This document shows positions 2,712-42,719 of a stretch of 64,000 nt of DNA, in pieces. How positions within the stretch are numbered: the stretch's first letter is position 1; each line of letters begins with the position of its first letter. Made by a program: the position numbers and the translations under genes. Source of the stretch: Clostridiaceae bacterium (GTDB lineage: Bacteria > Bacillota > Clostridia > Acetivibrionales > DUMB01). The notes beneath the pieces were generated by a model. It saw nothing but the letters and a program-made list of their open reading frames with translations, had not been told where the DNA came from and made no database searches. The DNA is taken from the NCBI GenBank assembly GCA_012840535.1, contig DULF01000049.1, positions 2,846 to 66,845 on the forward strand, given 5' to 3'.

Positions 2712-3629
2712 ATGAATGATGTATTGTGTATAGGAAGGATGACAAGTTGCGATATTATTTTTACTGAACTTCAAGAACTGCCGGAATTAGGAAAGGAGAT
2801 CTTTTGTAAAGACTTGGTTGTTAAACCCGGGGGTGCTGCCAACACACCTATGGCTTTAGCAAAGCTAGGAATAAAAACTGCTTTATTAACGGTGCTGGGA
2901 AACGATTTATTTGGCAATATTATTTTCGAGTATATCAAACAAACTGGAGTGGATATGTCGGCAGTTCATAAAGATAATAAGTACCGTACATGTGTTTCTG
3001 CAGTATTATCAACAGGGAGGGAAAGAGGATTTGTAACTTTTTATGATGAGAGTAAATACAGTTTTAAGATTGAAGATATTGAACAACAAATTAAAAATTC
3101 AATGTATATATATTCAGATATAATAACATGTATTGAACTACCAATTGTTGAAATAGCAAAGAAGTATAAAAAAAATATTTTTTTGGATACTTGTTGGAAT
3201 GAGAATATAAAACTTGACAAAATTAAACATTTACTTGAGCAAATTGATACGTTTATGCCCAATGAAATTGAAGCTTGTTATATAACAGATACCGATGATG
3301 TTGAATTAGCATTACAAAGGTTAGGACAGTATACTAATACAGTTGTTATAAAACTGGGAAACAAAGGAAGTATTGCCAAACAGAAGTATAATGTGGTAAG
3401 AACACCATCGATAAAAGGTTTGAAACCTATAGATACTACAGGTGCGGGGGACTTATTTAATGCAGGATTTATTTATGGTTGTCTAAAGGGATTGAATTTA
3501 GAGGATTCCCTACGAATTGCAAACATTACCGGTGGACTTGCAGTTACTTTTATTGGTGGTGTTGATGAGTCTTTCACAATTGAACAGGTCATGAAATATT
3601 TTAATTCTTCAACTGCTAATGTTTTATAG
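2712..3629 (+). CDS. PfkB/ribokinase-family carbohydrate kinase
   Basis: C-terminal PfkB signature DTTGAGDLFNAGFIYG and N-terminal GGAANT motif. 21 nt after the GH4 gene. Confidence 0.85.
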   Translation: MNDVLCIGRMTSCDIIFTELQELPELGKEIFCKDLVVKPGGAANTPMALAKLGIKTALLTVLGNDLFGNIIFEYIKQTGVDMSAVHKDNKYRTCVSAVLSTGRERGFVTFYDESKYSFKIEDIEQQIKNSMYIYSDIITCIELPIVEIAKKYKKNIFLDTCWNENIKLDKIKHLLEQIDTFMPNEIEACYITDTDDVELALQRLGQYTNTVVIKLGNKGSIAKQKYNVVRTPSIKGLKPIDTTGAGDLFNAGFIYGCLKGLNLEDSLRIANITGGLAVTFIGGVDESFTIEQVMKYFNSSTANVL

Positions 3630-31450: not shown

Positions 31451-31635
31451 ATTCACTTCTCGTATGCACCTTCCCAAAAACATCTTTTTCCTTATTATAT
31501 ACTCTGATCAAAAATAAATAAACAAGATTATTTGCTTGATTATATAAACAAGTGGAAACAAAGTATTGCAGATAGATGCTTTTTAATATAAAATGGAAAT
31601 GAAAATAGCAGGATGTAACCGTGGAAAGGGGCAGA

Positions 31636-33330
31636 ATGCTAGTGAAAAAAAGATTAAGAGCTACTAAATCTATTGTTTATTGTATAATCTTCATTCTGTT
31701 ATTTTTACATCCGAGTTTTGCAAATGCCGGGAAAAACCTCAGATCTGCAATAATAAGCGATTTAACCGGGGAAGTAAGTGTTATGAAAGCGGGCGGGGAA
31801 AAAGCCATCAAAGCCTTTAAAAATATGAGTCTGACCCAGGGAGACACAATCATTACCAGAAAAAAATCAAAGGCCACGTTGCTTATTGATGATGACATTA
31901 CTTTATATGTAGCAGAAAATACACGTATTTTAATCAGCGAGCTGGTTGAATCTTCAAAATCAAAGTCCAAATCAACATTGATTGACCTTCAGGGCGGAGG
32001 TATCTGGACAAGTATAAAAAAAGCACTGAATATCAATTCAAAGTTTGAGATAAAAACGCCTACGGCTGTAATGGGCGCAAGAGGAACAGAATTCTACACA
32101 AGCCATATCGGAGAAAAAACCAATATCAGCGTATTGTCCGGTGCAGTTTCGATAACCTCATATAAAACGGTTCTTAATGAAGACGGTACTACCAAACAGA
32201 TAACCCTTAATGTTGTTCTGGAAAATAACCAGCATATGACCCTTGAAGCAAAGCCTGAAGAATTGTTTGACATGATACAGGAGGAATTGACACTTGAGAA
32301 ACTGGATTTGTTTGCACTTGAAATAATCAAGGAAATAGCCGGGAATGAGCCGGAACTCGTAAAACCGGAGTTTATTGAGAAAATTGATGAAATTATAGAA
32401 AGCAAGAAGCAGGAGGAAAGACAAAAAGAAGAGGAAGAAAAGAAAAAGGAAGAGGAGAAAAACAACAGGGCTAATGTAATAGAATATGATGAACAACTGC
32501 AGGAAGATGATTCCTACAATAATGATTATAATAACGGCACAGGAAGCGATGGCGGGGAACCCGGTATAAAACCCGCGGTGGAGCTGGTCCCTGAAACGAA
32601 CCGGAATTTTGTAGATTATGAGTTGAGAATAACATTTGCACCCGACGACGATTTTGCAAATTCCATTACCAGCGTAAAGGTTAAACACTCAAATTATTCG
32701 GATGAATTTATAGAGCTTGACGAGGGCGTGACTTGGAATGACGGAGATTATTATATTGACACTGAAATAATTGATGGGCGTTATGCAATTGTTTTAAATT
32801 TATATCGTTATAAAGGTGAACTAAACATTCCAGGGACCTTGACAGTAAGGGTAGAGGCAACCGGATACGAAGTATCAGAGGTTGAACAGGTTATTTATCC
32901 TTGGCCTGACAGTGAGGCATCCTCCATGGAAATACTTTTGAATGGCGAACCGGTTTATGAAGAAGAGCTGGATTATGGCAATACCTATACCATAGAGTTA
33001 ACTGCAATGGGTATTGAGTCAATTGACAGTGGAAATATCGTTCCCATTGAAAATATGCAGTTTAATTTGAATATTTTTATCTACGCAGACTCAGACGAAT
33101 ATGCTTTCCAAATAGACGGAGATTATTATGGTAACGGCGAATATGAATATATCCCCTTGAAATCAAAAACAGACGGAAATGGGAAAGTTACATTTGAAAT
33201 AACAATACCTGAAGACATGCCGGACCATGCAGAAGCATTTTATATAGAAATATGTTACGGCACAGAATCTGCATTTGAATTGTTTGGTTTTTACGAAATT
33301 TATTTCCGTTATGAGGATATACCCTGGTAA
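31636..33330 (+). CDS. Secreted FecR-domain protein with Glu/Lys-rich coiled segment and C-terminal Ig-like domains
   Basis: Signal peptide ending FANA. FecR-type block GEVSVMKAGGEKAIKAFKNMSLTQGDTIIT...TPTAVMGARGTEFYT. Charged tract KKQEERQKEEEEKKKEEEK. ATG 31636 follows GGAAAGGGG. Confidence 0.8.
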   Translation: MLVKKRLRATKSIVYCIIFILLFLHPSFANAGKNLRSAIISDLTGEVSVMKAGGEKAIKAFKNMSLTQGDTIITRKKSKATLLIDDDITLYVAENTRILISELVESSKSKSKSTLIDLQGGGIWTSIKKALNINSKFEIKTPTAVMGARGTEFYTSHIGEKTNISVLSGAVSITSYKTVLNEDGTTKQITLNVVLENNQHMTLEAKPEELFDMIQEELTLEKLDLFALEIIKEIAGNEPELVKPEFIEKIDEIIESKKQEERQKEEEEKKKEEEKNNRANVIEYDEQLQEDDSYNNDYNNGTGSDGGEPGIKPAVELVPETNRNFVDYELRITFAPDDDFANSITSVKVKHSNYSDEFIELDEGVTWNDGDYYIDTEIIDGRYAIVLNLYRYKGELNIPGTLTVRVEATGYEVSEVEQVIYPWPDSEASSMEILLNGEPVYEEELDYGNTYTIELTAMGIESIDSGNIVPIENMQFNLNIFIYADSDEYAFQIDGDYYGNGEYEYIPLKSKTDGNGKVTFEITIPEDMPDHAEAFYIEICYGTESAFELFGFYEIYFRYEDIPW

Positions 33331-33442
33331 GAGTGAATCTGCTGAAATTGTTTGTTAAATTACTGAATTATTAAATTGCTGAATAGAATTGTTAAATCAA
33401 ATTGTTGAGCCATAAAACTTCTTAATTGTTGAGGTATGACTA

Positions 33443-35199
33443 ATGAAAGTAAAATCAATACATTTAATTATAATTATATTTTTACTTGCAGTTATAATCT
33501 CATATTTCAACAGCTTTGAAAAACTTGAGTATTTGGCGCAGGACAGCCTGTTCCAAAGGGGCGGCGATTGGGACACCCGTATTGTTGTTATTGCCATAGA
33601 TGATGAAAGCCTTGAGAAACTGGGAAGGTGGCCCTGGAGCAGGAAAATTCATGCTGAGCTCATAGATACACTGGCAAAAGGCAATCCTGCGGTTATATTT
33701 CTTGACATGATATTATCTGAACCATCAGATGACCCGGGTGAAGACGGAAGCCTGGCTAAGGCTGTGAAAAACTTTGGGCGTGTAATTATACCGTCCTATG
33801 GTGTGTTGGACAAAACAGCAAAGGGCGGCTTAATTGCTGTGTCTCAAATTGTTGAACCCGTCCCGGTACTGAAAGAGAATGCTCTCCAGGCTCATATAAA
33901 CACGTTCCAGGATTCCGACGGTATAGTACGAAGGACATTGCCGCGTCTTGTTTACAACGGAGAGATTATTGAGTGTGCTGCACTTAAAGCATACAGGATA
34001 TACGCAGAAACAGTAGGTGAAGCTGACATTTCGGAAAACATTCCTGTTGATGAATGGAACATGATGTATATCCACTACACCGGTGAACCGCAGAGCGTGG
34101 AATTCCATTCTTACCACAGGGTTTTAGAAGGTGAAATTCCTCCTGAGTATTTTGAGGATAAAATAGTACTTGTCGGTCCTTACACTGTGGGAATCGGAGA
34201 TTATTACCTTACGTCAATAGACCGCCAGGTACCGATGTATGGAGTTGAAATACATGCGAATATCATTCAGAACCTTCTCCATGGCAGTTTTAAGAAAGAG
34301 GTTGGTTTTGCGTTTACTCTTGTAATACTGGTACTGTTTACAATATTGGGATCTTACGCGTTTAGACGTCTATCGCCGGTAATGTCTGCCTTGCTGTTAA
34401 TTGCAGGTATCGCCCTGTATGCCGGCGCTGCGGTTCTGGTTTATGGCACAGGCTATATACTGCCGGTGGTTTATCCTGTTTCCTTGTATTTTGTTATTTA
34501 TCTTATCACATTGGCATATCGATATATTAATGAACTTTTTGAAAGAAAGCGTATAACATCCTTATTCAGCAGGTATGTTGCACCGCAGGTTGTGGGCAAA
34601 ATTGTAGCCGGCGGAGAAGAAGCCCTGAAGCTTGGAGGATCCCGCAGGGAGCTGACTGTGCTTTTTGTTGACATAAGAGGATTTACTCCTTTGTCTGAAA
34701 GAGCTGAACCGGAAGAAGTGGTTGCCATTCTCAATGAATATCTTACACTATGTGCTGAATCAATTTTAAGTACAACGGTACATTGGACAAATTTATAGGG
34801 GATGCTACAATGGCACTGTTTAATGCGCCGCTGGATTTGGAAGACCATGCTTTTAGTGCCGTACAGGCGGCATGGGCCATGAAGCGGGGAGCGGAACCCC
34901 TTAAAAAGAAACTGGAAGAGAAGTTCGGAAAGACAGTGGAATTCGGAATAGGAATTAATACGGGTGAAGCTGTGGTCGGAAATATCGGAGCGGTTTTCAG
35001 AATGGATTATACTGCTATCGGAGATACTGTAAACACTGCCGCCCGGCTGGAGAGCAATGCCAGACCGGGACAGATTCTCATGAGCCAGTCTACTTATGAG
35101 CGGGTAAAGGACAGGGTTAGGGCCACGTTCATGGGTGAGTACACAGTGAAAGGCAAGGCCCATGGAATTCCGGTATACCAGTTGGACGGACTGAAATGA
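33443..35199 (+). pseudogene. CHASE2-sensor class III adenylate/guanylate cyclase, split by a 1-nt frameshift
   Basis: CHASE2 block VVIAIDDESLEKLGRWPWSRKIHAELIDTL..IFLDMILSEP, then TM helices, then cyclase LTVLFVDIRGFTPLSE (frame A). It continues as (Y)NGTLDKFIGDATMALFNAP...GINTGEAVVGNIG...DYTAIGDTVNTAARLES in frame B. The shift falls within 34759-34775, probably in the T-run at 34764-34767. Confidence 0.85.
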
Positions 35200-35243
35200 A
35201 TTCATTTTACCATATACAAATTAACATGTATAAAGGTGGTTAC

Positions 35244-36794
35244 ATGAATATATCTTCAGTAAAAGCAAAAAGATGCGTGTTAGTTTTGATTGTGATGACG
35301 TATGCGCTGTTTATCCTTGGTTTTTCCAATGGTGAAGAACCTGTGCGGGAGGGATCCTTAAAACCCGGCACTCCTGAAAACGTGGTTGTTGAAGTTTTTG
35401 CGGGTTCAGGTGAGTTTAAATTTGAAGAAGGTGAAGCGCTTAAGGCAGGTTTTCGCTATCCATACGGTTTAGCTATTGATAAGGACGGGGGTTTATTGGT
35501 GGCTGATTCATTTAACCATGCTGTCAGAAAGATCATTGACGGTACGGTAGAAACCATTGCAGGAGGTTATGACGAAGGAATGCTGGATCCTTACGGTTTT
35601 CCGGACGGGGGATATGTTGACGGCAAAAAAGCGGTTTCAAGGTTTAATAAGCCCAGGGGCATTGCCTTAAATTCAAAAGGAGTAATTTACATTACAGATA
35701 CCGAAAATCATTCTATAAGGAAAATCGTGGGCGATAAAGTGGTTACATGGGCAGGGAGCGGCAGCGCCGGATACAGAAACGGAAAAGGAAACACAGCTGA
35801 ATTTTGCTTTCCTACCGGCATTGCCATAGACAAATTCGATAACATTTATGTTGCGGATACCTTGAATAATTGTATCAGAAAAATTTCACCGAACGGAATT
35901 GTAACACTTTTTGCGGGAAAACCTGGAGATGAGGGCGGATATAAGGATGGCTGGCTTTTTGAAGCCATGTTCAATGAGCCCACAGGGCTTGCATTCGATA
36001 ATGAAGGGAATTTATACATTGCAGACAGCGGCAACCAGGTTATTCGGAAAATAAGCGGCAGCATGGTATCCACCTACGCAGGCGTGGTGAATGAGAATGA
36101 AAAAATTGCTGAAACAGGCTATTATAAAGGAGGTTACAGGGACGGAAACAGGGAAACGGCGCTGTTCAATTTCCCGAAAGGTCTTGCTGTGACCGGAAAT
36201 GGAACGGTTGTTGTTGCTGACACGTGGAATAACAGAATAAGGGCTGTAAAACCCGACGGAGAAGTTATAACCATTGCCGGTACAGGAGAGCCCGGAGAAG
36301 TGACAGGCCCGGCGGGCAAGGCCATGTTCAGCGGTCCCGTGGACGTTGTATACTGTTCAGGTTTCCTGTACATATCGGATATGTGGAACAATACAATAAA
36401 AAGAATGCCTTTTGATGAAGAAAACCCGATACAAATCAATATACCAGATATTGACGAAATCCAGTTTGAACCTTATTCAGAAAACATACAGGTATGGATA
36501 GACGGAATAAAGGTGGAATTTCCCGATGTTAAGCCTTTTACTGAAGACGGAGTGCAGTTTGTACCTGTAAGGTTTGTTTTTGAAACCTGGGGTGCCGAGG
36601 TGGACTGGGAGCAGGAGACAAAAACAGTTATTATTAAAAAGGAATACAAAGTAGCCTTGATTCATACAAATGAAGAGCCGGTTGTGTTTAAAAACGACAG
36701 GACCATGGTAAGTACCCAATATATGTCTGAAAAGTTCGGCTTTTCAGTGGAATGGATTCCTGAGTACAATGCAGTGGTGTTTGTTACGCAATAG
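35244..36794 (+). CDS. Secreted six-bladed NHL-repeat protein with C-terminal copper-amine-oxidase-N-like (stalk) domain
   Basis: Six repeats of the type P.G(L/I)A.D..G..Y(I/V)AD..N..IRKI. C-terminal VQFVPVRFVFETWGAEVDWEQETKTVIIKK. ATG 35244 follows AAAGGTGG. Confidence 0.85.
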   Translation: MNISSVKAKRCVLVLIVMTYALFILGFSNGEEPVREGSLKPGTPENVVVEVFAGSGEFKFEEGEALKAGFRYPYGLAIDKDGGLLVADSFNHAVRKIIDGTVETIAGGYDEGMLDPYGFPDGGYVDGKKAVSRFNKPRGIALNSKGVIYITDTENHSIRKIVGDKVVTWAGSGSAGYRNGKGNTAEFCFPTGIAIDKFDNIYVADTLNNCIRKISPNGIVTLFAGKPGDEGGYKDGWLFEAMFNEPTGLAFDNEGNLYIADSGNQVIRKISGSMVSTYAGVVNENEKIAETGYYKGGYRDGNRETALFNFPKGLAVTGNGTVVVADTWNNRIRAVKPDGEVITIAGTGEPGEVTGPAGKAMFSGPVDVVYCSGFLYISDMWNNTIKRMPFDEENPIQINIPDIDEIQFEPYSENIQVWIDGIKVEFPDVKPFTEDGVQFVPVRFVFETWGAEVDWEQETKTVIIKKEYKVALIHTNEEPVVFKNDRTMVSTQYMSEKFGFSVEWIPEYNAVVFVTQ

Positions 36795-36839
36795 GCTTTG
36801 GTACTCAATTATCATTTATTTCAGGAGACACTGATTACC

Positions 36840-37688
36840 ATGGAGAAACTGGAATTTAAAATAATATTCTGGGGTGTAAGGGGTTCAATGCCGGTTCCAG
36901 GGCCTTCCACCCTGAAATACGGGGGTAATACCCCTTGTGTCCAGGTGCAGATCGGGGAGAAGCTGATAATACTTGATGCCGGCACGGGCATATGCAATTT
37001 GGGAAAAGAGCTGATAAAGAAAAACACGAAAATAACGGGCCATATATTCATTACCCATGTTCACTGGGACCATATTCACGGCATTCCCTTCTTTCTGCCT
37101 GTATATAAAAAAGGGAATCATTTCAGAGTATTCGGTGAAAGGAAAGGGGATATGGGATTTAAGGAACTGATGTCTCTGATGATGAAAGCGCCTTATTTCC
37201 CTGTAGAAATGGATGCGATCGGCGACCAGATTGAAATATGTGATATAGAAGCAGGCCAAAGAATACAGTTAAGCCCTGGAATTGTTATTAAGACTGAAAG
37301 AAACAATCACCCCAACGGCGGTATTTCATACAGAATAGAACATGGCGGACGTTCTTTTTGCTACGTAACCGATACAGAGCATTATAAGGACACAATTGAT
37401 CCTCTCCTGAAAAATTTTATTGAGGGTGCGGATATCGTTATATATGATGCAAACTATACCGATGAGGAATATAACGGCCTTTGCGGAAATCCTTCACGCA
37501 CTGGATGGGGACATTCCACCTGGCAGGAAGGAATTAAGCTTGTAAGAGCTGCAGGAGCAAAGAAACTTGTGTTGTTTCACCATAATTCGGACAGAACGGA
37601 CAAAGAACTGGATATAATTGATGCACAGGCACGTGATGTATATCCTGATTGCGTAACTGCATATGAGGGTATGCAAATTATTCTGTAA
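36840..37688 (+). CDS. Metallo-beta-lactamase-fold hydrolase (Lactamase_B_2 type)
   Basis: N-terminal FWGVRGSMPVPG, metal motif THVHWDHIHG, and later HSTW and FHH motifs. Confidence 0.85.
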   Translation: MEKLEFKIIFWGVRGSMPVPGPSTLKYGGNTPCVQVQIGEKLIILDAGTGICNLGKELIKKNTKITGHIFITHVHWDHIHGIPFFLPVYKKGNHFRVFGERKGDMGFKELMSLMMKAPYFPVEMDAIGDQIEICDIEAGQRIQLSPGIVIKTERNNHPNGGISYRIEHGGRSFCYVTDTEHYKDTIDPLLKNFIEGADIVIYDANYTDEEYNGLCGNPSRTGWGHSTWQEGIKLVRAAGAKKLVLFHHNSDRTDKELDIIDAQARDVYPDCVTAYEGMQIIL

Positions 37689-37714
37689 ATACAAAAATAT
37701 TGGGGGGTACAAAT

Positions 37715-38329
37715 TTGACGAAATACTTTCCGGTATTAAAATATGTAAACATTCCAACCATTATTACATCTCTGTCAATATGTGCCGGTGTTGTATCTTT
37801 TATTCTGTTTACACATGGAATTTATAATTTTGGCATTCTGGCATATGGTTTTGCCCTGTTTTTTGACGGTATAGACGGCAAAATTGCAAGGAAATTAAAA
37901 AAAGAAACGGATTTTGGAGCGGAGTGCGACAGTTTGTCAGATGCCATAAATTTTACGGTTATTCCTGCCCTGATTGCATATTTTACAGGATTTAAAGGAC
38001 CAATCGCCGTATGCGTTCTTTTGATATATGTAATTTCAGGGATTTGGAGGCTTGCAAACTTTAATATCAGCGGGTTGATCCAGGTTGAAGGCAAAAGCTA
38101 TTTCACAGGCATTTGCACTACCCAGGCGGGCGCGCTGTTTCTGATAGCAATTACGGCATGCCTGGCATTTTTCAAAGATGCGTTGATATATTTTATGTAT
38201 CCTTTCTTTCTGGCATTGGCAATACTTATGAATTTATCATTTAAATGCAATAAAAACGGGCTGTTTACCAAGGCTTTGTATGTGCTGGTACCTGTATCGG
38301 TTTTTGTATCATTCATAAAAGTAGGGTAG
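37715..38329 (+). CDS. pssA: CDP-diacylglycerol-serine O-phosphatidyltransferase (CDP-alcohol phosphatidyltransferase family)
   Basis: Motif DGIDGKIARKLKKETDFGAECDSLSD (DGxxARx8GxxxDxxxD). Polytopic membrane protein upstream of psd. TTG 37715 after GGGGGT is preferred; the track start is TTG 37700. Confidence 0.8.
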   Translation: MTKYFPVLKYVNIPTIITSLSICAGVVSFILFTHGIYNFGILAYGFALFFDGIDGKIARKLKKETDFGAECDSLSDAINFTVIPALIAYFTGFKGPIAVCVLLIYVISGIWRLANFNISGLIQVEGKSYFTGICTTQAGALFLIAITACLAFFKDALIYFMYPFFLALAILMNLSFKCNKNGLFTKALYVLVPVSVFVSFIKVG

Positions 38330-38333
38330 AGGC

Positions 38334-39221
38334 ATGCTGAAAGTATACAACCTCAGAACAGGAAGTTACGAAATTGAAAAAACAGCGGGTAGCAGGTGGC
38401 TGGACGGTTTATATGGGACAGGCACGGGAAGGTTCCTGTTGGAATTATTAATTAAGCATAAGGTTTGTTCTTTTTTGTGCGGGAAATTATGTGACACCCG
38501 CATAAGCGCAAAAATGATCAAAAGGTTTGTTGAGAAATACAATATTGATTTGTCTGAATGTGTGGAGGGCATACACGGTTTTAAAAGCTTTAATGACTTT
38601 TTTACAAGAAAGCTTAAGCCCGGAGCAAGAAAATTTGACCCGGACCCGAACCTGCTGTCGTCACCCGGCGACGGGAGGATGCGGGTCCTGAAGGATATAG
38701 ACCCGGGGAATATATTACAGGTCAAAGGCCTTTTCTATTCCCTTGAAGAGTTGTTACTGGACAGAGAGCTTGCTGAAAAATACAAGGGAGGGATATGTAT
38801 AATTCTGCGCCTTGCTCCCGTGGACTACCACCGTTTTCATTTTGTTGATTCCGGTGTATGCGAAAGGAGCAGGGCTATCAAAGGTTTTTATTACTCGGTA
38901 AACCCCAGGGCCCTTCATGCCATACCGGGGCTTTACTGTAAAAACAACAGGGAAGTCAGTCTTTTCAGGTCAGATAACTTTGGCGATATTACGTATGTAG
39001 AAGTCGGGGCAAAATTTACAGGGACAATTGTTCAGACTTACAAACCTGGAACCAGGGTTGAAAAGGGAGCTGAAAAAGGCTATTTCAAGTTCGGGGGCTC
39101 CACCTGTATACTGCTTTTTGAGAAAAACTCGGCAGTTATCAATGAACAAATATTGGATCAAACCCAAAAAGGTTACGAGGTAAAGGTGCTGGCAGGAGAC
39201 GTAATCGGAAGAAAAGGATGA
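38334..39221 (+). CDS. psd: Phosphatidylserine decarboxylase proenzyme
   Basis: Typical length, with LRLAPVDYHRFH and the self-cleavage-type motif FKFGGSTCILLF near the C-terminus. Confidence 0.85.
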   Translation: MLKVYNLRTGSYEIEKTAGSRWLDGLYGTGTGRFLLELLIKHKVCSFLCGKLCDTRISAKMIKRFVEKYNIDLSECVEGIHGFKSFNDFFTRKLKPGARKFDPDPNLLSSPGDGRMRVLKDIDPGNILQVKGLFYSLEELLLDRELAEKYKGGICIILRLAPVDYHRFHFVDSGVCERSRAIKGFYYSVNPRALHAIPGLYCKNNREVSLFRSDNFGDITYVEVGAKFTGTIVQTYKPGTRVEKGAEKGYFKFGGSTCILLFEKNSAVINEQILDQTQKGYEVKVLAGDVIGRKG

Positions 39222-39245: not shown

Positions 39246-39743
39246 TCAGCATTCTTTCATCTCCCACTTCGGGCAGTTATAATATTCTATCTGTTGTTTA
39301 TTTATTGGATATCTCCCGCATGAAAAATAGCGCCAGAAGAAAGAGTTATATGACCTGCACAGGTTGTTGGTTGTGTCCAGCAATGGACATGCTATGGCCT
39401 GGCAGCATTTTGTGCACTGGTTGCAGTCGAATGCACCTGCCTTCCAGGAGTCTCTTATCTTTACGATATTCAGGTCGGGAGAAGTTCTGGGAGGTGCGGT
39501 TAAGCTGATGGAAAACTCGCCCCTGTAGGCTTCTGAGGTTAACCATAAAAATGCCAGGCGCCAACATGCCATAACCATGGGAAAGTAGTAACGGAAGTAC
39601 TTCCAGAATTTCAGGTCATTAAAAAAGTAATATGAAAAAAGGGGAACAAGCAGGAGCCCGCCTATACCAAATGTCAGGATGGTAACGGCGGCGAAGATGA
39701 TGAATATTATGCGGTATACAGCGTATTTAACCTTATTTGGCAT
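39246..39743 (-). CDS. Membrane protein with YkgJ/UPF0153-like CxxCxxCC Cys-rich domain
   Basis: Two to three N-terminal hydrophobic helices, then FDCNQCTKCCQAIACPLLD...LCRSY...FSCGRYP...YNCPKWEMKEC. 55 bp downstream of the cNMP-CPBP gene on the same strand. Confidence 0.7.
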   Translation of the reverse strand: MPNKVKYAVYRIIFIIFAAVTILTFGIGGLLLVPLFSYYFFNDLKFWKYFRYYFPMVMACWRLAFLWLTSEAYRGEFSISLTAPPRTSPDLNIVKIRDSWKAGAFDCNQCTKCCQAIACPLLDTTNNLCRSYNSFFWRYFSCGRYPINKQQIEYYNCPKWEMKEC

Positions 39744-39798: not shown

Positions 39799-40944
39799 TT
39801 AGAATATAACCCACAAACCCAGCAAACCGGTAAAATTACCGATTAGAAAATGAGAAATGCTGATGCCGATTAAGTTTTTATGCCTATAATACATCCAGCC
39901 CCACAGCCACCCGGTAACAACTGCGGCTAAAGCCAGGTAGATTGAAGCAAAAACATGTAAAGAACCAAAAAGGAGCGATGTTATAATAATTGACAGTACC
40001 ACTTTTGAACGGCCGACCAAAAGCCGTTCCAGGGAACTCTGCACCACTCCCCGGGTTATAAACTCCTGGAGAGGTGCTACCACCAGGTATGTAACATATG
40101 TATAGTCAAAATATTCCCATACTATAATGCGCTTATCGGGAATTTTATCGGGATATGCAACGATAAGCGCGTATTTTGCCAAGGCCAGGATTCCCATAAT
40201 TGCCAGGGAAATAACCAGGGATTCCATAATTGATTTTTTTGCACCTGAAAGGGTTAAACCAAAGTCTTTCCAGCTTAAACTGCTGTTCCTGATAATTTTG
40301 ACAACAAGCGCAAGGGTAGTAACTTCAATGATTCTGGAAATGAAATAAGAACTTTGCTCCGGCAAATGACGGACTATCGCTTCGGTACTCAGCAATCCCA
40401 GGATGAAAGTGTAGCTTGTGATTAACAAAACAATGCTGGTAAATAATGAAGCCAGTTCCGTCCGTATTTTGTTCATTTTTTTCAGTTCTTCGTTTTTTTC
40501 TTCAAGTGAAAGATATGATACTTTCAAACGGTCATAAAGTTTTTGCAGTAATGTGCCAATGATATGGGGATGGGATTTGGTCACTTGTTCGAGATCATCT
40601 TTGAATATTTCATATACTGTCATGTCCGTTTTGGCTACGATGGATGCAGTACGTGTCTTTCCGGTCAGAAGGGCAACTTCACCGAAAAAATCCCCCGAAT
40701 TCAGCTGACCAATCAATACTCCGCCGCTGCTTTCGCTAATTACGTCGGCTTGCCCGTTTTCAATTATGAAAAGGCTGTCAGCCTTGTCACCTTCCCTGAT
40801 AATTCTTTCACCGGGCGTAAAATGCCTTGTTTTAATCCTGTCAAGGATTAAATATAATTCCTTTGGTATTTCACGCTCTTCGTTCAAACTGAAAAAGCTT
40901 CTTAAAGAATTACTTGACAGAAGGTTCTCATAAAACTCATTCAT
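39799..40944 (-). CDS. Cyclic-nucleotide-binding domain fused to a CPBP-family (CAAX/Abi-type) intramembrane metalloprotease
   Basis: cNMP-binding block RIIREGDKADSLFIIENGQADV...GDFFGEVALLTGKTRTASIVA. C-terminal polytopic region carries the CPBP motifs LQEFITRG, SLLFGSLH and SHFLIGN. Confidence 0.85.
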   Translation of the reverse strand: MNEFYENLLSSNSLRSFFSLNEEREIPKELYLILDRIKTRHFTPGERIIREGDKADSLFIIENGQADVISESSGGVLIGQLNSGDFFGEVALLTGKTRTASIVAKTDMTVYEIFKDDLEQVTKSHPHIIGTLLQKLYDRLKVSYLSLEEKNEELKKMNKIRTELASLFTSIVLLITSYTFILGLLSTEAIVRHLPEQSSYFISRIIEVTTLALVVKIIRNSSLSWKDFGLTLSGAKKSIMESLVISLAIMGILALAKYALIVAYPDKIPDKRIIVWEYFDYTYVTYLVVAPLQEFITRGVVQSSLERLLVGRSKVVLSIIITSLLFGSLHVFASIYLALAAVVTGWLWGWMYYRHKNLIGISISHFLIGNFTGLLGLWVIF

Positions 40945-41069: not shown

Positions 41070-42449
41070 TTACTGGCTTAGGACTGTTGAGCCGGCATTG
41101 CTGTCCCTGTACCGTTTCCCCCTGGCTACGGCTTTTTTTATTGCCTCATGCTGCCTTTTGCCTATCCTGTAAAAGCTCAATACCACAATTGCCGAGATAA
41201 TTATCAGTCCCGGTACAACGCCCAAAAGGGCCCTCAGAGCAATAAGGGCTGACCTGGGCTGTGGCATGTCTGCAATATAGCCTGACCATTCCAGTACCTG
41301 CCCTGTAATGAATGCTCCCAGGGAGGATGAAAACTGCCTTAAGAAAGACTCCATGCCAAAATATGCTCCCGCTCTTTTTTCACCGGTTTTCATCTCATCA
41401 TACTCTATGCAGTCAGGTATGATGGAGTAAGGTATGACATGAGCGGCGGAAAGGCCGATTCCTGCAACTGCCGACAAAATGTAGATTACTGCGGGTGATC
41501 CTTGTGACAGGAATGATATTATCAGCAAGGGCAGTATAAAGACTATCATGCCGGCGAAATATGCTCCCTTTTTACCTGCCTTTTTTGCAAACCATACCCA
41601 GAAAGGTAAAAATACTGCTGCAACAATGAAAATTATGCCCAATATTATTTCCGAGTGAGCTTCCATATCCAGCACATACTTCATGTAGAACATCAGCACC
41701 ATGCTAACTACTTCTATTGCCAGCCAGGTGAGCAAACACATGGTGATTGCCAGGATAAAAGGTTTATTGCTCAGTGTTAATTTTATACTTTCAATAAAGG
41801 AAAAGGTTTTTTCTCCCTTGACCGTGTTATTTTCCCTGCATCCAAAAAAAACAAACAGGGGAGAGAATATTATTGCAAGCCCGAATACTGCCCCCATGAC
41901 GGCATAGCCTTTAATTTGAACGGAAAAAAGGTCTACGATCATTTTTGGTACAACTGCTGCCACAAGGCCTGCTATGATGGAGAAGACCATTCTCCATGCG
42001 GCAATGCTGGTGCGTTCATCATAGTCATCTGTCAGCTCAGCGGAAAGGGAAGAATAGGGCACTGCTATTACACTGTAAAAAGTGATGTGAAGTATATAAA
42101 CGATTATTATAAGAAGCAGAGTGGCCAGCATTGAGGTTTCAACCAAGAGGGGGACTGACCAAATCAGAAAGAAACTTATGCCGAAAGGTATGGCAAAGTA
42201 TAAGAAATAGGGCCTTCTCCTGCCCCACTTTGTGTCTGTTTTGTCTGAAATGTTGCCGATTAACGGGTCAATAAAGGCATCCCATAGCTTTGCAACCAAA
42301 AGGGCGCTGCCGACCCAACCGGGATTTATTTTGACAACGTCAGAAAGATAAAAAAGAAGAAACACACTGATAACCGTATATGAAGCACTAAAACCGATAT
42401 CACCGGCGCCGTATGCCATCTTTACTCTCAAAGGCAGCTTGGTGGACAT
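41070..42449 (-). CDS. GPH-family (glycoside-pentoside-hexuronide:cation symporter, MelB/YicJ-like) transporter
   Basis: N-terminal MAYGAGDIGF...WDAFIDPLIGNISDKTDTKWGRRRPY and about 12 TM helices. ATG 42449 follows AGGGGGTG. Confidence 0.85.
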   Translation of the reverse strand: MSTKLPLRVKMAYGAGDIGFSASYTVISVFLLFYLSDVVKINPGWVGSALLVAKLWDAFIDPLIGNISDKTDTKWGRRRPYFLYFAIPFGISFFLIWSVPLLVETSMLATLLLIIIVYILHITFYSVIAVPYSSLSAELTDDYDERTSIAAWRMVFSIIAGLVAAVVPKMIVDLFSVQIKGYAVMGAVFGLAIIFSPLFVFFGCRENNTVKGEKTFSFIESIKLTLSNKPFILAITMCLLTWLAIEVVSMVLMFYMKYVLDMEAHSEIILGIIFIVAAVFLPFWVWFAKKAGKKGAYFAGMIVFILPLLIISFLSQGSPAVIYILSAVAGIGLSAAHVIPYSIIPDCIEYDEMKTGEKRAGAYFGMESFLRQFSSSLGAFITGQVLEWSGYIADMPQPRSALIALRALLGVVPGLIIISAIVVLSFYRIGKRQHEAIKKAVARGKRYRDSNAGSTVLSQ

Positions 42450-42719
42450 ATAAACACCCCCTAAACCCATTATATATCAAGCAATACATACAATCAATTG
42501 TGTTGTTTATTCCATACAGATGCTACAATTAAAACAATTTTAAATATGATTACATGATTTCCCAATTTATATTTGTATAAACAAGTGTTTAAAATTTAAT
42601 AGTATTGCTATGAAATGCTGTTTAAGTTTAACATAATTATATATTTGCATTAACTTGTGTGTTAAAATTAATAGGACAGGGAAGCAGGTACTAAACACGT
42701 AAATAAGGATGGATTTGCT

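Follow-up and report, generated by a model that had tools for sequence, protein, structure and literature searches.

A cyclic-nucleotide-binding domain joined to a variant CPBP membrane module and accompanied by a Cys-rich partner protein: a candidate second-messenger output module of bacteria

CPBP/Abi proteins are abundant and mostly of unknown function, and to our knowledge few effectors of bacterial cAMP or cGMP are known besides the CRP-type regulators. In the Rce1 proteases the catalytic base is the first Glu of motif 1 (Glu140 in MmRce1, Glu156 in ScRce1), supported by Glu141, His227 and Asn231, with Arg145 at the base of the cavity (PMC12067869). LnsB, which acts with its partner LnsA in the N-acylation of Staphylococcus aureus lipoproteins, SpdC/LyrA, and APH-1 of gamma-secretase have in common a CPBP-like fold, a non-canonical catalytic set, dependence on a second protein, and an envelope or lipid context (PMC7387801). 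On the sensory side, MloK1, SthK, the HCN and CNG channels, and the CRP and PKA-R effectors carry a canonical beta-roll with a phosphate-binding cassette, the C-helix of which leads into an output element. Here we describe a gene that brings such a sensor and such a membrane fold together, located on the minus strand at positions 39799..40944 of a 64,000-nucleotide stretch of Clostridiaceae DNA (contig DULF01000049.1 of assembly GCA_012840535.1; this whole stretch is called "the window" below). Its product has an N-terminal cyclic nucleoside monophosphate (cNMP)-binding domain (CNB) and a C-terminal CPBP membrane module.

The fusion protein resembles each of these systems in part. Like LnsB, SpdC/LyrA and APH-1, it has a non-canonical catalytic set and goes together with a second protein in an envelope or lipid context, but in those proteins the motifs are poorly conserved and a sensor domain is absent, whereas in the fusion family the variant set is invariant and the partner, termed here Cys8 after its conserved Cys residues, is unrelated to NlpC/P60. 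From the Rce1/CPBP proteases it differs by an invariant Gln in place of the first Glu of motif 1, by the N-terminal cytoplasmic sensor with its signalling helix, by the Cys-rich partner, and by the absence of a CAAX or bacteriocin context. The beta-roll, cassette and C-helix are those of the channels and of CRP/PKA-R, but here the N-terminal CNB feeds a helix of about 60 residues directly into transmembrane helix 1 (TM1) of a CPBP fold, and neither the pore of an ion channel nor a kinase or a DNA-binding domain serves as output. The family looks like an uncharacterised second-messenger output module and may not be a conventional protease. The initial annotation of the window, made from the sequence alone, missed the partner gene, the siblings fused to GAF and receiver (REC) domains, the frameshift in the nearby cyclase gene, and the neighbouring genes of phosphatidylserine (PS) and phosphatidylethanolamine (PE) synthesis; nor did it anticipate that Gln invariably replaces Glu in the motif, that the partner is an orphan, or that the sensors are interchangeable and associated with PS/PE genes. 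The features of the gene pair are as follows.

39799..40944, minus strand: cNMP-CPBP fusion gene, 381 aa, ATG start (open reading frame with translation; Pfam PF00027 and PF02517)
40570..40827, minus strand: cyclic-nucleotide-binding domain, residues 40-125 (PF00027, Foldseek, phmmer)
40642..40686, minus strand: phosphate-binding cassette FGEVALLTGKTRTAS, residues 87-101, with G88, E89, R98, T99 and A100 (sequence and alignment to PKG and PKA)
40459..40569, minus strand: charged helical linker, residues 126-162 (DSSP helix in the AlphaFold2 model, conserved pattern)
39802..40458, minus strand: seven-helix membrane module containing the Rce1-like/CPBP core (PF02517, AlphaFold2 helices, loop charges)
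40051..40068, minus strand: motif 1 variant Q293-E294-F-I-T-R298, canonically E-E-x-x-x-R (invariant in the alignments)
39955..39969, minus strand: motif 2, FGSLH, F326 to H330 (His invariant)
39835..39852, minus strand: motif 3, HFLIGN, residues 365-370, H365 to N370 (His invariant)
39246..39743, minus strand: partner gene; the 165-aa product has two TM helices in its N-terminal part and a C-terminal domain rich in Cys (adjacency; no Pfam family)

The 381-aa open reading frame (ORF) of the initial annotation is confirmed on the minus strand, the strings quoted there (QEFITR, FGSLH, HFLIGN and FGEVALLTGKTRTAS) were all located, and its cNMP module and CPBP region both score above the Pfam cut-offs. 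The profile search and AlphaFold model that it proposed as checks support both domains: the AlphaFold2 (AF2) model, built with 57 homologs (mean predicted local distance difference test score, pLDDT, of 86), shows a beta-roll followed by a helix leading from the C-helix of the CNB into TM1, the first of seven membrane helices, and the topology, N-terminus inside with seven TM helices, is consistent with the loop charges. The protein is 100% identical to one from an NCBI metagenome-assembled genome (MAG) named only "cyclic nucleotide-binding domain-containing protein". Residue numbers given here are the true ones; numbering in the alignments and the model is one lower, with the initiator Met omitted.

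The PF02517 match (E=2.8e-14, 53.6 bits against a gathering threshold of 22.4) covers residues 283-368 (nt 39841-40098), and the window protein has in common with Rce1/CPBP (Abi) proteases such as MmRce1 (PDB 4CAD) the polytopic helical core, the second Glu and the Arg of motif 1, FxxxH, and HxxxN. However, with the register set by the Arg at +5, the position of the catalytic Glu (the Glu140 equivalent) is occupied by Gln293. The profile and motifs 2 and 3 of a CPBP protein are found and an EExxxR with its first Glu is not; judged by its sequence, the window protein is a member of PF02517 by profile, yet one defining catalytic feature is missing. Q293, E294, R298, H330 and H365 are invariant both in an alignment of 57 sequences and in one of 27 sequences that reaches 27% identity. 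They are likewise kept at each of the 80 genome loci, which are distinct at species level and for which LQEF was part of one of three search patterns; the invariance holds down to about 25% overall identity. The motif-3 Asn is kept in the window's clade, where a few members have D or S, and is replaced by hydrophobic or small residues in a distant cNMP clade. The invariance of the Q-E-R-H-H set points to a site that still functions, whether with altered chemistry or in the specific coordination of a ligand, and not to a decayed one, and because the catalytic Glu is Gln in every relative examined, conventional proteolysis is doubtful. The description of the protein as a CPBP protease with three diagnostic motifs thus needs to be qualified: the PF02517 assignment, FxxxH, HxxxN, and the second Glu and Arg of motif 1 stand, while the first Glu of EExxxR does not. 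Likewise, an E-to-A substitution in QEF, which had been suggested as a protease-dead control, would remove the Glu141 equivalent, not the catalytic base.

Other similarities of the membrane part did not lead to a closer assignment. The best NCBIfam CPBP matches of the window protein are myxosortases (MrtC/MrtS/MrtJ), membership of which was rejected on the NCBIfam cut-offs (MrtS 38.1 against 130 bits, MrtJ 37.3 against 75, Mrt_core 23.8 against 100), and, in contrast to myxosortases, substrates with a C-terminal sorting signal were not identified. A weak similarity of the fusion protein to the TM domain of CNNM did not reach the Pfam cut-off (E=0.003) and was disregarded. A phmmer search of PDB with the membrane part alone returned no Rce1 chain and a sole, spurious match (E=1.4), and in a profile search of PDB the matches were dominated by CNB domains.

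The partner gene lies directly downstream of the fusion gene, after a gap of 55 nt that has a good ribosome-binding site and in which a terminator-like site is absent. Terminator-like matches inside the partner coding region are no more frequent than expected from shuffling and were treated as chance. Eight Cys residues (C107, C110, C113, C114, C119, C129, C142 and C157) and the juxtamembrane segment LTAPP..PDL are conserved among partner sequences, and the cytoplasmic Cys-rich domain is probably metal-binding. A partner homolog with 44-77% identity adjoins the CPBP gene in every closer relative, be it cNMP-fused, GAF-fused, REC-fused or short: it is present at 31 of 31 unique loci and never on the opposite strand, lying downstream in 26 and upstream in 5; the median distance between the two genes is about 11 nt, and at several loci they overlap. 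When all neighbours were clustered without bias, the partner came out as by far the most recurrent one (34 loci), and the pairwise identity matrices of CPBP and partner proteins correlate with r=0.80.

Beyond this pairing the partner is an orphan. Only 38 partner clusters were found at E<=1e-30 among 1.84 billion representatives, no Pfam family was detected in 27 members scanned at E<=10, and Foldseek found no similar fold in PDB, although the model of the partner is confident (pLDDT 89). A broadened hidden Markov model of the partner returned a single weak match (E=0.003), an ORF with a YkgJ-like Cys pattern. The likeness of the partner itself to YkgJ is confined to the Cys pattern and unsupported by the Pfam scans or Foldseek, and PF03692 (the YkgJ/UPF0153 family of CxxCxxCC zinc/iron-chelating proteins) was found neither in the 27 members (E<=10) nor in 10 remote relatives. 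The remote relatives share the layout of the partner yet stand alone; since a neighbouring CPBP gene is absent from two of them (P0246 and P0261), the pairing does not predate the core family, and since the distant cNMP clade has no partner, Cys8 is not a universal target of CPBP proteins of the QE type.

Searches with a profile of the membrane module yielded 184 clusters at E<=1e-5; of these, the best 120 all score below 1e-64 and mostly contain PF00027 together with PF02517. Altogether, the fusion was found in more than 100 protein clusters, and about 50 of the 80 genome loci, cultured isolates among them, are cNMP-fused (cNMP and cyclase assignments at these loci are based on domain-limited queries and Pfam), so the survey proposed in the initial annotation shows the fusion to be genuine and recurrent. 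Names in the source databases are generic, e.g. "cyclic nucleotide-binding domain-containing protein" or "CRP-like cAMP-binding protein/membrane protease YdiL", and within open-access text we found no paper or functional study on the cNMP-CPBP fusion; the earlier statement that a direct second-messenger input to the CPBP family is not known to be characterised agrees with this, common as the fusion is in databases. Cultured members with the partner occur in Brevibacillus, Aneurinibacillus and Paenibacillus (carriers include Brevibacillus fluminis, Aneurinibacillus sp. REN35 and Paenibacillus sp. N3.4), and cultured members without it in Legionella. The distant cNMP clade comprises sequences from Paenibacillus, Cohnella, Halalkalibacter, Legionella, Verrucomicrobia, Myxococcales and Chlamydiota.

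At 40-50% identity, the nearest relatives of the membrane module bear other N-terminal sensors, namely GAF domains (P0062, L045, L047, L063) and REC domains (P0072-74), or belong to short forms of about 305-310 aa, the N-terminal region of which has no Pfam match. The linker helix is retained in the GAF, REC and short siblings, and its pattern ELE.KN..L...N.IRT.LA is kept across all of them and the cNMP forms. Such swapping of sensors is what one expects if the membrane module is a regulated output domain. The short forms (e.g. P0038, and L023 5446-6480) align with the window protein from about residue 83-90 on, and their N-terminal ~75 residues match the part of the CNB domain from the cassette to the C-helix (AVLTEHAREIIAG... 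vs ALLTGKTRTASIVA...); they may have arisen from the cNMP form by truncation and be blind to the ligand. Next to the GAF-fused CPBP and partner genes of L010 (8639-11620), L045 (6334-9204) and L063 (9861-13160) we observed a large sensor histidine kinase with Fer4/Fe-hydrogenase-like regions and a stand-alone receiver gene, the kinase being assigned from precomputed Pfam domains in L010 and from similar N-terminal sequence only in L045 and L063. This suggests that the GAF subclade is associated with a redox-sensing two-component system.

In the sensor of the window protein, PF00027 matches with E=1.5e-23 (83 bits against a gathering threshold of 27.5) over profile positions 2-89 of 89, and the model contains the eight-stranded beta-roll with B and C helices, the strands lying between model residues 37 and 113 and followed by helices. 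The best Foldseek matches in PDB are cNMP-bound CNB domains of HCN2, MloK1, PKA-R and CRP (E ~1e-10), and phmmer against PDB found apicomplexan PKG (6e-31) and PKA RIa (1.8e-23), the cassette matching position by position (FGEvALLtgktRTAS vs FGErALLydepRTAS). The complete cNMP module with phosphate-binding cassette claimed initially is thus borne out, with the Arg and Thr contacts present and aligned to PKG, PKA and HCN domains. The Gly-Glu and Arg-Thr-Ala ligand contacts being intact in the cassette, the N-terminal domain likely binds a cNMP. The "RTAS" form of the cassette is found in both cAMP- and cGMP-binding domains. The charged linker, described before as a helix of about 40 aa, is indeed a charged helix (residues 126-162), but in the model it is only the cytoplasmic part of a single unbroken helix of about 60 residues, 126-185 (125-184 in the model), that becomes TM1.

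A nucleotide cyclase and two genes of PE synthesis lie on the opposite strand, in a run of genes that converges on the pair:

33443..35199, plus strand: class III nucleotide cyclase of the CHASE2 type; a 1-nt frameshift at ~34757-34796 divides it (Pfam CHASE2 and Guanylate_cyc)
37700-38329, plus strand: pssA-like CDP-alcohol phosphatidyltransferase (Pfam; pssA is the best NCBIfam match, sub-threshold at 79 against 107)
38334-39221, plus strand: phosphatidylserine decarboxylase, psd (Pfam; NCBIfam equivalog, 395.9 bits against a cut-off of 371)
31621-39221, plus strand: six co-oriented genes, including these three, with gaps of 113, -4, 3, 11 and 4 nt

The initial annotation had placed a class III cyclase 4.6 kb from the fusion gene and proposed a short circuit between the two. 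The cyclase is present, but as a frameshifted gene in a separate, convergent transcription unit: ORF 33443-34798 encodes CHASE2 and positions 8-40 of the cyclase profile, ORF 34783-35199 encodes positions 55-181 in another frame, and neither holds CHASE2 together with a complete Guanylate_cyc domain. One base inserted anywhere in 34757-34796 restores a 585-aa cyclase ORF collinear with the intact cyclase of L015, and both metal-binding Asp motifs (FVDIRGFT and DKFIGD) are intact; the frameshift could be an assembly or sequencing error of the MAG, or mark a recent pseudogene. The idea of a circuit fares better elsewhere, since in L015, a Pelotomaculum MAG locus with a CPBP protein 74% identical to that of the window, the cNMP-CPBP gene stands head to tail between an intact CHASE2 cyclase and the partner gene in one operon, all on the same strand and with gaps of 98 nt (from the upstream cyclase to the fusion gene) and 31 nt (to the partner), which supports the cyclase link. 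Class III cyclases were also found within 0.7-1.6 kb in L001, L062 and L064, and none near any GAF, REC or short form. Co-occurrence with CHASE2 cyclases, which had been proposed as a point to survey, is seen in the L015 operon, but not at most loci, which have no cyclase within 10 kb.

The six genes at 31621-39221 encode, in this order, a protein with FecR and Shr-like heme-binding domains, the CHASE2 cyclase, an NHL-repeat protein with a Cu_amine_oxidN1 domain, an MBL-fold protein, the pssA-like enzyme and psd, the end of which converges on the partner gene across a gap of 24 nt. From the spacing they look like one operon, i.e. the nucleotide cyclase and the PE-synthesis genes would belong to a single transcription unit. 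The MBL-fold gene (36798-37688, plus strand), located between the cyclase and pssA, has sub-threshold NCBIfam matches to RNase Z (82 against 293 bits) and to NF041851, "cyclic nucleotide-degrading phosphodiesterase" (45.6 against 400); its product could be a cNMP phosphodiesterase. The association with phospholipid genes recurs: in the Limnochordia locus L010, as in L011 and L028, pssA precedes the GAF-CPBP and partner genes and psd follows them, the gene ends overlapping, and in L045 the GAF-CPBP and partner genes are followed by pssA. The distance to pssA and/or psd is no more than 1.5 kb in the window, L010 and L045, and two further loci have pss-psd 5.5-6.3 kb away. By a rough estimate, about 4 independent co-localisations with pss/psd among about 31 loci are well above chance for single-copy genes in genomes of several Mb.

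Taken together, these data lead us to a general scheme to which we give about an even chance of being right: the fusion gene encodes the cNMP-responsive member of a family that combines a sensor, a signalling helix and a CPBP fold, and that acts with the Cys8 partner. In this scheme, a class III cyclase (of the CHASE2 type in this lineage) would make cAMP or cGMP, which would bind the phosphate-binding cassette via E89, R98 and T99 and reposition the C-helix; as this helix is continuous with TM1, the shift would alter the membrane cavity with Q293, E294, R298, H330, H365 and N370, and the altered cavity would act on the partner. The most likely action would be regulated cleavage or release, or else holding and release, of the cytoplasmic Cys-rich domain of the partner, probably with a downstream effect on the cell envelope or on PS/PE metabolism. 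What is inferred in this scheme is that a ligand binds, that the helix transmits the signal, that the partner is the target, and what chemistry (hydrolytic or other) and physiological output follow. Several observations weigh against the scheme: the distant cNMP clade has neither the partner nor the motif-3 Asn, the window's own cyclase is frameshifted, most loci have neither a cyclase nor a pss/psd gene within 10 kb, and with Gln in place of the catalytic Glu hydrolysis by the Rce1 mechanism would not be expected. A bolder version of the scheme, which we offer tentatively and consider rather unlikely as a whole, is that the QE-type CPBP protein and Cys8 form an unrecognised two-protein membrane machine, switched by exchangeable cytoplasmic sensors (cNMP, GAF or receiver) and different from a conventional protease, that would act on PS or PE, or perform a PE-dependent modification or release, and so link second-messenger and possibly redox or metal signals directly to the homeostasis of membrane lipids.

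The alternative that survives best, though on balance improbable, is that the membrane module is a non-catalytic pseudo-protease, i.e. a receptor or chaperone that, under cNMP control and without cleavage, would bind either the partner or else some lipidated or peptide ligand. Replacement of Glu by Gln at the catalytic base is a classic way to keep binding and lose hydrolysis, the partner is obligate, and CPBP proteins that act non-proteolytically with partners have a precedent, as proposed for APH-1, SpdC/LyrA and LnsB (PMC7387801). Against this stands the fact that former catalytic residues of pseudo-enzymes usually relax, whereas here Q, E, R and both His residues are invariant in more than 100 sequences, which fits retained chemistry or a very specific coordination of a ligand.

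A stand-alone, conventional glutamic intramembrane protease that is gated by cNMP, cleaves membrane or secreted substrates and serves, like Rce1/Abi proteins, bacteriocin immunity or peptide processing seems unlikely to us. The PF02517 score above cut-off, the presence and conservation of E294, R298, H330, H365 and N370, and a Peptidase_C39-like gene divergently upstream of the fusion gene in L007/L008 speak for it, but Gln invariably occupies the position of Glu140 (MmRce1) or Glu156 (ScRce1), the distant clade has lost the motif-3 Asn, and the strict pairing with the partner speaks against a stand-alone enzyme. The link to bacteriocin immunity drawn in the initial annotation finds no counterpart in the gene content, as bacteriocin genes were not found nearby.

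We are more doubtful still about a function directed at lipids themselves, in which the CPBP cavity and the Cys-rich partner would handle PS/PE, or a PE-dependent processing step, and thereby couple second-messenger or redox signals to phospholipid homeostasis. The CPBP cavity of Rce1 opens laterally to the bilayer, the gene orders of L010/L011/L028 and L045 and the plus-strand run of the window that converges on the pair fit such a role, and a lipid connection is made plausible by two precedents, the lipoprotein-acylating LnsAB (PMC7387801) and ArtA, a membrane-embedded processing enzyme that is syntenic with, and functionally dependent on, the PS synthase and decarboxylase homologs PssA/PssD (PMC7157517), much as the fusion family is associated with such genes. 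ArtA, however, is archaeal and belongs to another enzyme family, and the sorting-signal substrates that go with it were not found here. Archaeosortases use a catalytic Cys. Moreover, only about 4 independent lineages of about 31 have pss/psd within 6.5 kb, and the association may reflect nothing but shared envelope regulation.

We rejected a Pycsar-type anti-phage effector, in which a CNB domain with TM helices damages the membrane once a defence cyclase is triggered, as very improbable, because, although the logic of a CNB fused to a membrane-embedded part is similar and PADLOC effector models match with E ~1e-13, the matches are confined to the generic CNB domain (residues 22-152) with none in the membrane part, the partner or the MFS neighbour, the fusion protein has a CPBP fold and not simple TM helices, an adjacent PycC-type cyclase is absent, the neighbours are housekeeping genes, and the GAF and REC siblings do not fit.

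Returning to the sensor-switched CPBP module and its Cys8 partner, the family gives the CPBP fold a clear regulatory input, cNMP in the window protein and GAF or phosphorylation in the siblings, and supplies a defined candidate for its partner or target. The natural Gln-for-Glu variant offers a test of whether the Rce1 fold does more than glutamate-driven hydrolysis, and the cultured carriers make these hypotheses directly testable. The recurrent link to PS synthase and decarboxylase genes suggests a route from second messengers to the control of membrane phospholipids, which is otherwise poorly understood.

Some neighbourhoods of homologs deserve mention in their own right. The Paenibacillus and Cohnella loci of the distant cNMP clade (L057, L067, L072, L073, L080, L081, L085 and L090) have a conserved neighbourhood of their own, at ~6.5-10 kb in each locus, with a ~414-aa glycosyltransferase-like protein of the GT2 type (by sequence inspection) encoded directly upstream and a ~640-aa protein, which would suggest an operon of the exopolysaccharide type. 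In L014 (5074-5862) a gene encoding NlpC/P60 and SPOR domains is divergent from a short-form CPBP gene, reminiscent of the LnsA/LnsB pairing, and in L007 the Peptidase_C39-like gene (2836-3420) is divergent from the cNMP-CPBP gene; both neighbours are restricted to a single lineage, and neither was recurrent in the neighbour clustering. In the window, an MFS_2/GPH-type transporter gene (41070-42470, minus strand) precedes the fusion gene by 125 nt in the same orientation; it is probably unrelated to the fusion gene, because it is not conserved beside the homologs, and the gap between the two contains a promoter-like site at 41028-41000.

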